Shown here: one piece after another, positions 43,279 through 43,648 of the stretch
Position numbering within the stretch: the stretch's first letter is position 1
How the letters are laid out: each line of letters begins with the position of its first letter
Assembly: GCA_963716985.1 (NCBI GenBank)
Contig: OY970323.1
Span: forward strand, 960,001-1,024,000
Direction of reading: 5' to 3'
DNA from: an uncultured bacterium
Lineage (GTDB): Bacteria; Chlamydiota; Chlamydiia; Chlamydiales; SM23-39
Length of the DNA stretch: 64,000 nt
The notes under the pieces: model-generated
Told to the model about the DNA's origin: nothing
Databases searched by the model: none
What the model saw: the letters and a program-made list of their open reading frames with translations, nothing else
Made by a program: the position numbers and the translations under genes

Positions 43279-43540
43279 GACGATCTCAAGGTGAAATGTC
43301 ACCACCCCTCCCTGAAGGGAGAGGCCTGAGAGATCAAGCCTGAAGTTGACCAGCCTTAAGTCTTAAGGCAACTTGGGACTATGTTAGGAGCGAATATAAA
43401 TAGGTACCTTGGAATGCCGCCTCAGTTCTAAGCTTTGCGGTTAGCAGTTAAACCAAGCGTATGGGTTAAACCAGTACTGTTAACATGGTAAACCGCTCCA
43501 TAACTTTGGCGAGGGGAACGTTACCCGGGAAACCGGAGAT
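43279..43540 (+). ncRNA. HEARO/omega-RNA-like structured RNA (5' flank-derived guide plus scaffold)
   Basis: Ordered HEARO-like motifs GTTGACCAGCC, ATAGGTACC, GAATGC...CAGTTC, GTTAAAC, AAACCG...ATAAC-TTTGGCGAGG; nested helices GTCAC/GTTGAC, AGTCTTAAG-GCAA-CTTGGGACT, GTTAGGAGCG/CGCTCC-ATAAC, GTTAGCAGT/ACTGTTAAC, CCGG-GAAA-CCGG; both ends approximate. Confidence 0.82.
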
Positions 43541-43648
43541 TGCAGGTAACTGCTAGGGGGGAGCAATTCCCCGCTTTTAAGTTTAACAATGAAGGAGCAG
43601 CACCTCCTCCCACCCCTAAAGGGATGGGTTTCCGTGCTGTCAAATAAG
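43298..43648 (+). mobile_element. Non-autonomous IS200/IS605 (IscB-type) element carrying omega-RNA but no IscB/TnpA ORF
   Basis: Subterminal hairpins CTCCC-TGAA-GGGAG (left) and CCCAcCCC-TAAA-GGGATGGG-TTTCC (right); no TIR or TSD; followed immediately by ATGAA. Confidence 0.82.

Follow-up and report, generated by a model that had tools for sequence, protein, structure and literature searches.

The window, a stretch of 64,000 nucleotides (G000:C1:960001-1024000, where G000 denotes the host genome of 2.07 Mb), carries a V-ATPase operon whose first gene encodes a 208-aa subunit E-like protein with a Pfam HrpE/V-ATPase E match of 20.2 bits, below the 23.5 cut-off. Downstream of it lie a DUF2764 gene and the genes for clear V/A-ATPase A and B subunits (ATP-synt_ab). 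A short element bearing an omega-RNA scaffold is inserted exactly between a Shine-Dalgarno (SD)-like motif and the ATG of the first V-ATPase gene, and the features of the locus are collected in Table 1. Copies of the element are named by their kb position in G000, the element at this locus being c1003. Orientation is given in the omega-RNA/iscB sense, in which the 5' end is the omega-RNA side (RE of Meers et al.) and the 3' end is the start-codon side (LE in the TnpA convention).

Table 1. Features at and next to the c1003 insertion; positions are those of the window
Feature	Position	Strand	Basis
Scaffold-less remnant c1002, 172 bp, head-to-head with c1003	42779..42950	-	BLAST
Extended -10-like TG-n-TATAAA motif of the V-ATPase operon promoter	43264..43272	+	Sequence; motif conserved in G001
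Host 5'-UTR stretch, putative omega-RNA guide, with original SD-like AAGGTG	43279..43297	+	Flank 5' of the element border
Non-autonomous ISC (IscB-type IS200/IS605) mini-element c1003, 351 bp	43298..43648	+	Borders from the G001 empty site; BLAST and alignment to other copies
HEARO / IscB omega-RNA scaffold	43298..43524	+	RF02033, 103.6 bits, full model
Two short GNRA-capped hairpins past the Rfam model, common with iscB-linked copies	43525..43555	+	Alignments; BLAST identity to parents
GC hairpin with GCAA loop, then T-run (terminator-like), mini-specific, in place of iscB	43556..43581	+	Terminator scan, 43556-43572
SD-like AAGGAG directly 5' of the end hairpin; in parents part of the last iscB codons	43592..43597	+	Sequence reading
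Subterminal imperfect hairpin, start-codon-side end	43597..43640	+	MFE fold
ATGAA, transposon target and presumptive IscB TAM, also host start codon	43649..43653	+	Uninterrupted in G001
V-type ATPase subunit E-like gene, first of the operon	43649..44275	+	Pfam HrpE/V-ATPase E

The borders of c1003 were read from G001, the sole same-genus genome, which has no HEARO match; its alignment to the window begins at 43646 and shows 73% identity. Its empty site reads ...AAGAGGAAAT joined directly to ATGAAAGAAATCG..., and the window reads ...AAGGTGAAAT, then the 351 bp, then ATGAAAGAAATCG...; in the longer readings, TGgTATAAAtggcagtgttcttAAGAGGAAAT meets ATGAAAGAAATCG in G001, and TGtTATAAAagccgtgacgatctcAAGGTGAAAT is followed by the 351 bp and ATGAAAGAAATCG in the window. 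The ribosome-binding site of G001 directly adjoins ATGAAAGAA of the V-ATPase E-like gene, without duplication, and the element has neither a target-site duplication nor terminal inverted repeats. The first-pass annotation had proposed an element with these two borders, lacking both kinds of repeat, and had predicted the empty site of a relative; the comparison fixed the borders to the base, and the predicted site was seen exactly. Empty sites in G001 were equally exact for all three omega-RNA minis tested (c1003, c1491 and c1669), and all were scarless. The flanks of c1491 are contiguous between positions 15507 and 15508 of G001:C28, and the empty site of c1669 lies before rpsF. At c1951, a one-ended remnant before ruvC, only the gene side aligns to G001, where ATGAAT is present and no element-like sequence was found upstream of it. 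Since IS200/IS605 excision is scarless, an empty site in G001 fits an element that was never present and one that was lost alike, and the leader is not an ancestral structure either way. The element in the V-ATPase leader is thus an insertion, and the alternative of a domesticated leader, taken as ancestral, is not supported.

The scaffold matches RF02033 over the full model (model positions 1-211 of 211; cmscan), with 103.6 bits against a gathering score of 83 and an E-value of 3e-20 for the whole window. HEARO was the sole non-tRNA Rfam family above threshold in the window; no other Rfam family was detected within 43000-43900 at E-values up to 1, and RF02033 gave no match in any of 14 control genomes. 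The HEARO/omega-RNA motifs recognised at first pass were in this way confirmed by the covariance model, the helices named there being the long-range helix and the large hairpin of the model, and the GNRA-capped stems could be read directly from the sequence at 43525-43572. At the 5' side scaffold and transposon share one border, so that the guide must come from the flank. From the end of the HEARO match to the end of the element there are 124 bp, followed by the host gene; no iscB is present at the locus, and the same place in the iscB-encoding parents described below holds 1.3 kb of iscB.

BLAST identity of c1003 to the parents extends past the Rfam model to element position 258. The GC hairpin and T-run that follow, matched by the terminator scan at 43556-43572 plus GCTTTT, were found in 11 of 11 minis from four genomes. 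Their stems carry compensating changes (GGA/TCC, GTC/GAC, AGGG/CCCT and GAG/CTC between minis) and the loop is mostly GNRA, with the exception of G029a, in which the stem is shorter and the tetraloop gives way to nine nucleotides rich in C. RNAalifold predicts only three pairs of this hairpin because MAFFT mis-registers it. The parents have no such hairpin, their scaffold continuing straight into iscB. Terminator-like sites were not commoner in the scanned region than in shuffled sequence (three against a shuffle mean of 1.7). The hairpin and T-run have the form of an intrinsic terminator; since efficient termination here would silence the V-ATPase operon, and likewise the rpsF operon at c1669, either the structure is not a strong terminator in vivo or a further promoter exists.

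At the far end of the element, the GGAG core of the SD-like motif is kept at 14 of 16 ends in G000 and in five of five minis of relatives. The hairpin next to it has a consensus fold of 14 pairs, seven of them with double compensatory changes, and the 5' end of the element is formed by the first hairpin of the HEARO model, so that the subterminal hairpins claimed for both ends at first pass are well founded. In the parents iscB ends within the 3' hairpin, with its stop codon in the loop, and c1003 retains the last ~30 nt of iscB. One order of parts, namely scaffold, short hairpins, GC hairpin with four to six T, GGAG purine stretch, 3' hairpin and end, is common to the six minis of G000 and the five of its relatives G008, G013 and G029. 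As read from this order, the minis are a design and not random deletions.

Copies of the element and its IscB-encoding parents

HEARO matches in G000 numbered 11 at E-values up to 0.001, nine of which were above the cut-off. BLAST searches with the mini and with a parent as queries found related copies at 17 further loci of G000, before unrelated genes. Two of these, c166 and c1818, are parents in which a full element of 1628 bp carries a HEARO scaffold directly upstream of an intact iscB. The parent frames are open over 464 codons, with Pfam RRXRR scores of 234-237 bits; the IscB protein has 442 aa, with a PLMP-containing region at its start and RRXRR and HNH (52 bits) domains, and matches solved IscB structures at E-values of 5e-39 to 6e-25, the catalytic residues having been read by eye only. 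An intact nuclease with PLMP, RuvC and HNH regions is therefore present that the RNA could use. The two proteins are identical at 424 of 442 positions (96%) without gaps. Their closest relatives outside G000 are from a Rhabdochlamydiaceae bacterium (70% identity) and from another bacterium of the Chlamydiia (58%), followed by Desulfatirhabdium, Planctomycetota and others at 52-60% identity. These relatives, taken with the secretion-system, autotransporter and V-ATPase genes and the size of G000, are compatible with an environmental chlamydia.

The scaffold of c1003 is 94.6% and 92.5% identical to those of the two parents, and identity to the other family-A minis is 90.5% for c1491 and 83% for c1669 and c1919; family A has these four minis. 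Two divergent minis, c389 and c35, form family B; scaffolds of this type accompany an iscB in G013 but none in G000. One copy, c1222, has an internally deleted iscB, and two pieces, c21 and c1049, consist of the 5' end only. The 3' end is retained by seven smaller remnants (c531, c1002, c558, c748, c254, c1230 and c1951). Of these, c1002 is the neighbour of c1003 and adjoins the ATGAA (42778) at which an ORF of 79 aa with a signal peptide starts, with a terminator-like hairpin at 42871-42857. Differences of 5-17% between copies indicate that the family is old in G000.

Among the 41 related genomes searched, HEARO matches were present in seven, G000 included, and absent from G001. Five iscB-less minis were found in G008, G013 and G029. 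These genomes represent three other genera, and G029 belongs to another family of the same order.

Three tnpA loci were found in G000, comprising two intact IS200-like copies behind a group II intron reverse-transcriptase ORF and one frameshifted copy of IS605 type. The hairpins at all three differ from the element ends, no TnpA with matching end hairpins was found in G000, and BLAST with the mini gave no match near any of the three. Of what the first-pass annotation proposed to look for in the genome, two intact iscB parents and further copies exist, and the tnpA genes present have hairpins beside them unlike those of the element. As no TnpA with matching ends was found, excision, and hence the need for retention, may have ceased.

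Its empty site and scaffold show c1003 to be a genuine mini-transposon with exact borders, which belongs to a known superfamily, carries an omega-RNA and lacks the nuclease, as the first-pass annotation had correctly read. That it derives from an IscB-type element without iscB and has the insertion history described above is, on these comparisons, almost certainly correct.

Placement at start codons

The 3' ends that could be examined in G000 (n = 16) are flanked by ATGAA in 15 cases and by ATGAT in one, which agrees with the first-pass proposal that a 3' TAM abuts this end of the element. The ATGAT flank stands directly before a tRNA-like sequence, identified by eye as tRNA-Glu. The flanking ATG is the start of an ORF on the same strand (79-742 aa) at 14 of the 16 ends; the remaining two are the tRNA-like case and c1230, whose flanking ORF has 28 aa. 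Eleven of the 14 docked ORFs have a Pfam match from near the N-terminus, namely a methyltransferase, secretin, FKBP, FliH/SctL-like, Cdd1 and V-ATPase-E-like (sub-threshold) match, together with adenylate kinase, YbbR, ribosomal protein S6, autotransporter and RuvC; the other three have none. The displaced SD is often still visible in the left flank, as in GGAGGCTTT and AAAGGAGTGAGCTC, each of which ends at the element border.

A null expectation was built from greedily called ORFs of at least 100 aa, giving 1672 genes and 86% coding sequence, and allowed for selective removal of every gene-disrupting insertion. G000 contains 7252 ATGAA sites, 948 of them outside called ORFs. ATGAA stands at the longest-ORF start of 266 genes; when in-frame occurrences among the first 30 codons are counted, the number of genes is 422. 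The share of starts expected among non-disruptive ATGAA sites is 22-31%, and the probability of at least 14 in 16 is 4e-8 to 4e-6, both the shares and the probabilities being approximate because the gene calls are crude. Near-exclusive start-codon docking is documented in G000. Replication-strand bias was considered as a cause of the orientation and rejected, 6 of 18 copies being co-directional with the fork as inferred from GC skew (two-sided P 0.24).

Seven elements in the relatives have an identifiable 3' end. Five of them stand directly before an ORF (254 to over 463 aa) and adjoin its ATG, one adjoins ATGAAT with the start of a 344-aa frame 7 nt downstream, and one adjoins AAGAAA in non-coding DNA. 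Among distant IscB relatives in other phyla, 24 loci were inspected with a simple scan, and at six of them a 3' end could be seen with ATGA and an ORF (181 to over 387 aa) after it.

Proposed guide RNA production and use in trans

Since an IscB element does not itself contain the guide of its omega-RNA, this guide can be made only by transcription that enters from a host promoter. At c1003 the TGtTATAAA motif stands 25 nt before the element; in G001, where the leader is about 25 nt, TGgTATAAA stands 23 nt before the ATG. The extended -10 motif noted at first pass is present at 43264-43272 and conserved in G001; the consensus promoter scan did not call it because this two-hexamer scan also requires a -35 hexamer. 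Two other promoter-like sites were returned for the region, against a shuffle mean of 1.4. Judged from the position of the -10, the guide would start at about 43279.

The reading that we favour, and consider probable, is that c1003 is an iscB-less ISC mini whose guide RNA, made from a host promoter, would be loaded in trans by IscB and direct cutting of the empty allele. Transcription from TGtTATAAA would start near 43279 and give a guide of ~19 nt (43279-43297) followed by the scaffold, and the element's own hairpin and T-run would end the RNA. IscB from c166 or c1818 would load this RNA in trans and cut the scarless donor joint, that is, the guide match plus ATGAA, left after excision by TnpA; recombination with a sister copy would then restore the element by the published retention mechanism. 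As to the parts of this scheme, production of guide and scaffold RNA from the host promoter has the promoter motif in its favour and is rather more plausible than its contrary, and the chances that c1003 is still a working guide for IscB today fall somewhat short of even.

The flanking 16-mer of c1003 occurs once in the genome, and its 12-mer followed by ATGA nowhere else. The 16-mers flanking 10 copies each occur once, except for one low-complexity flank that occurs twice, and for none of the 10 flanks was the 12-mer plus ATGA found elsewhere in the genome. A regulatory, TldR-like reading was ruled out on this ground, the guides having no secondary 12-mer plus ATGA targets.

It is unlikely that c1003 is instead an inert relic, an element by descent that is no longer mobile, whose RNA is no longer used by IscB and which persists because precise removal is rare and expression of the operon was not abolished. 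Several observations nevertheless point this way. The HEARO score of c1003 is the lowest of the nine above-cut-off copies in G000 (103.6 against 105-143 bits), and it has private changes, in that one nucleotide is missing from the first helix, the second hairpin contains a mismatch and conserved single-stranded positions are altered, all of which suggest that c1003 may be decaying. The lack of a TnpA with matching ends among those found, the 5-17% divergence between copies, the plain decay of nine further copies (one-ended or internally deleted) and the two family-B minis without a cognate iscB in G000 are likewise in keeping with a relic. Against this, the two iscB genes are intact although their proteins have diverged by 4%, which speaks for continuing selection on the nuclease; over the full model the c1003 scaffold still scores higher than the curated cut-off, and the mini design and its hairpin are conserved with compensatory changes across four genomes.

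Insertion left the ATG intact, and the host gene accordingly stays translatable. It also put 351 nt between the native SD and the ATG. MFE folds leave the GGAG mostly unpaired and, with the 3' hairpin discounted, 8-10 nt from the ATG, and we hypothesise that this element-end GGAG, brought to that distance by the hairpin, may substitute for the displaced SD. Split ribosome-binding sites are known from phage T4 genes 38 and 25, in which an SD-like motif and the start codon are bridged by a stable hairpin and reach normal spacing once the stem forms; for the 3' end of c1003 this is an analogy only.

A step further is the less probable suggestion that the leader has been exapted, with GGAG and end hairpin acting as the translation initiation region of the host gene and the structured RNA upstream modulating the V-ATPase operon. 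The displacement of the native SD and the folds just described are compatible with this, as is the way the copies have decayed: what is left of the element in seven of seven decayed 3'-end remnants begins at parent positions 1537-1570, 0-34 nt ahead of the GGAG motif, which lies at about 1571. The terminator-like stem of c1003 is, moreover, weaker than in its closest relatives, one GC pair having been lost with respect to c1491, a weakening judged from the sequence only. However, GGAG is iscB coding sequence in the parents, and its conservation may therefore be inherited; two remnants keep only the other end, so that decay was not strictly one-sided; and 14 unrelated genes are preceded by this module, a point in favour of a generic rather than an operon-specific role. 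The module is, furthermore, absent in G001. An ancestral riboswitch-like V-ATPase leader that merely resembles HEARO would suit the 5'-leader position and the high predicted structure content, but is next to impossible given its absence from the G001 site, with a leader of only about 25 nt, the related copies before unrelated genes at 17 further loci, two of them with iscB, and the lack of any other Rfam match at E-values up to 1 in 43000-43900.

Returning to a guide RNA used in trans, the placement of the copies allows a broader proposal, which we put forward tentatively and with the balance of probability against it, that this IscB-element lineage and its minis may be specialised for docking in sense between a ribosome-binding site and ATGA-type starts. 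Docking there would capture a host promoter and a short 5' UTR as the source of the external guide. The element would carry a replacement GGAG, brought next to the host ATG by the end hairpin, and the minis would add their own hairpin and T-run to end the guide RNA. IscB would protect copies so placed from loss, which would leave 14 of 16 in G000 and five of seven in the three other genera on starts.

Relation to known elements and significance

ISC transposons have 5'-GTCA termini, lack target-site duplications and insert at N/ATGA, the slash marking the joint, as verified by empty sites (Kapitonov et al. 2016, PMC4810608). They resemble the present family in the 5'-GTCA terminus, the lack of terminal inverted repeats and target-site duplications, the subterminal hairpins and the insertion directly 5' of ATGA, and the families described there come from Cyanobacteria and Proteobacteria and carry iscB. 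The G000 family differs in that its target is ATGAA and coincides with a gene start codon in 14 of 16 cases; the term "start codon" has no occurrence in the text of PMC4810608.

For IscB, Meers et al. (2023, bioRxiv 10.1101/2023.03.14.532601) describe an omega-RNA with its scaffold from the transposon RE and its guide from outside, which needs outside transcription, and elements biased towards the orientation of the upstream gene. PATE elements, according to the same source, often encode omega-RNAs that are necessarily used in trans. The minis share with PATE-like elements the absence of a protein gene, the family ends, a guide-RNA gene for a nuclease encoded elsewhere, the requirement for outside transcription and an orientation that follows host transcription. 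In the available part of the preprint, however, mainly TnpB-type PATEs are treated and orientation is given relative to the upstream gene, and docking between SD and ATG, a built-in hairpin and T-run, and a GGAG beside the end hairpin do not appear there. With HEARO/omega-RNA (RF02033), c1003 has in common a full model above the cut-off and a 5' border that is the transposon end; unlike the scaffolds of the two parents it has no iscB after it, carries the GC hairpin and T-run 31 nt past the model end, and could be used in trans only.

Omega-RNA-bearing PATE-like elements, the N/ATGA target and the reliance on outside transcription are thus known. Start-codon docking and the terminator/GGAG module appear undescribed: the available portion of a 2026 review (PMC13565253) has no occurrence of "start codon" or "ATGA", a limited literature collection yielded no work joining IscB or HEARO with Rhabdochlamydia, and the titles and abstract openings in that collection held nothing on placement of IscB or HEARO at start codons.

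G000 offers a natural case, defined at the sequence level, in which the three parts of an OMEGA system (guide RNA, nuclease and transposase) are physically separated within one small genome, with guide-RNA genes at six loci and nuclease genes at two. The target of each guide is known from the empty allele of a sister species, which makes use of omega-RNAs in trans directly testable. The near-exclusive placement at start codons suggests how IscB elements obtain the outside transcription on which they depend. It points, too, to the way in which a genome that is compact and probably intracellular can tolerate elements before core genes, here those for ribosomal protein S6, adenylate kinase, RuvC, V-ATPase and secretion. 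If the end module does prove to be a portable ribosome-binding site, it would represent a novel means by which transposons can neutralise their own insertion.

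The 351-bp copy and a neighbouring remnant

In the 351-bp omega-RNA mini-element of the window, AATAAAGGAG in the relatives of this copy has become AATGAAGGAG, which results in a new ATG. This ATG precedes the start of the V-ATPase E-like gene by 20 codons and is in frame with it, and the ORF listing therefore extends the V-ATPase E-like ORF to include it; no SD-like motif is present upstream of the new ATG. The window also holds a 172-bp remnant of the same family, oriented head-to-head with the 351-bp element, which has kept the 5' hairpin, a terminator-like hairpin and the 3' end while its scaffold is almost gone. 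It adjoins the ATGAA at which an ORF of 79 aa starts; the N-terminus of this ORF is signal-peptide-like, and the ORF gave no Pfam match.

Positions of the features described in the host genome (G000) and the window
Feature	Locus	Position
Family B mini	L048	G000:C1:35378-35758
Family B mini	L051	G000:C1:389020-389379
Mini c1919	L060	within G000:C1:1918900-1919850
Adenylate kinase gene behind c1222	L055:767-1501	G000:C1:1222966-
Intact IS200-like tnpA	L014	within G000:C1:755916-759272
Intact IS200-like tnpA, twin		near G000:C1:1970077
172-bp remnant		window 42779-42950 (-)
79-aa ORF, start		window 42778
New ATG		window 43589-43591
V-ATPase E-like ORF as listed		window 43589-44275

Other copies and tnpA in the host genome

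The two family B minis, whose scaffold type is divergent, are orphan guide-RNA genes; the genome that carries them has no iscB of the family B type, and a similar scaffold tail in the related genome G013 (L033) precedes a 458-aa IscB frame. Behind the 3' end of c1919, a mini, there is no protein gene; this end adjoins ATGAT, directly followed by a putative tRNA-Glu (a tRNA-like sequence identified by eye). The adenylate kinase encoded behind c1222, the internally deleted iscB copy, bears a hydrophobic N-terminal extension of 33 residues before its ADK domain (Pfam match from residue 34).

Both intact IS200-like tnpA copies have a 452-aa ORF for a group II intron reverse transcriptase/maturase directly upstream, and the tnpA frame does not cover the start of the profile. 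A group II intron appears to lie inside the 5' part of tnpA or immediately ahead of it.

Minis and IscB in other genomes

A mini type with a different 3' hairpin was observed in the related genomes G018, G023 and G008 (L030, L038 and L041), its end preceding ATAAA rather than ATGAA. A gene ATG lies ~8-24 nt beyond this end in two of the three loci, the sequence of the remaining locus stopping short of any ATG. This type possibly represents a second target specificity.

Several non-chlamydial IscB loci among L064-L094 likewise have ATGA at their end, with a long ORF behind it. Since the nearest non-chlamydial relatives of the IscB studied here (52-60% identity) are scattered over Desulfatirhabdium, Planctomycetota, Chloroflexia, cyanobacteria and others, their distribution suggests transfer of IscB between phyla.
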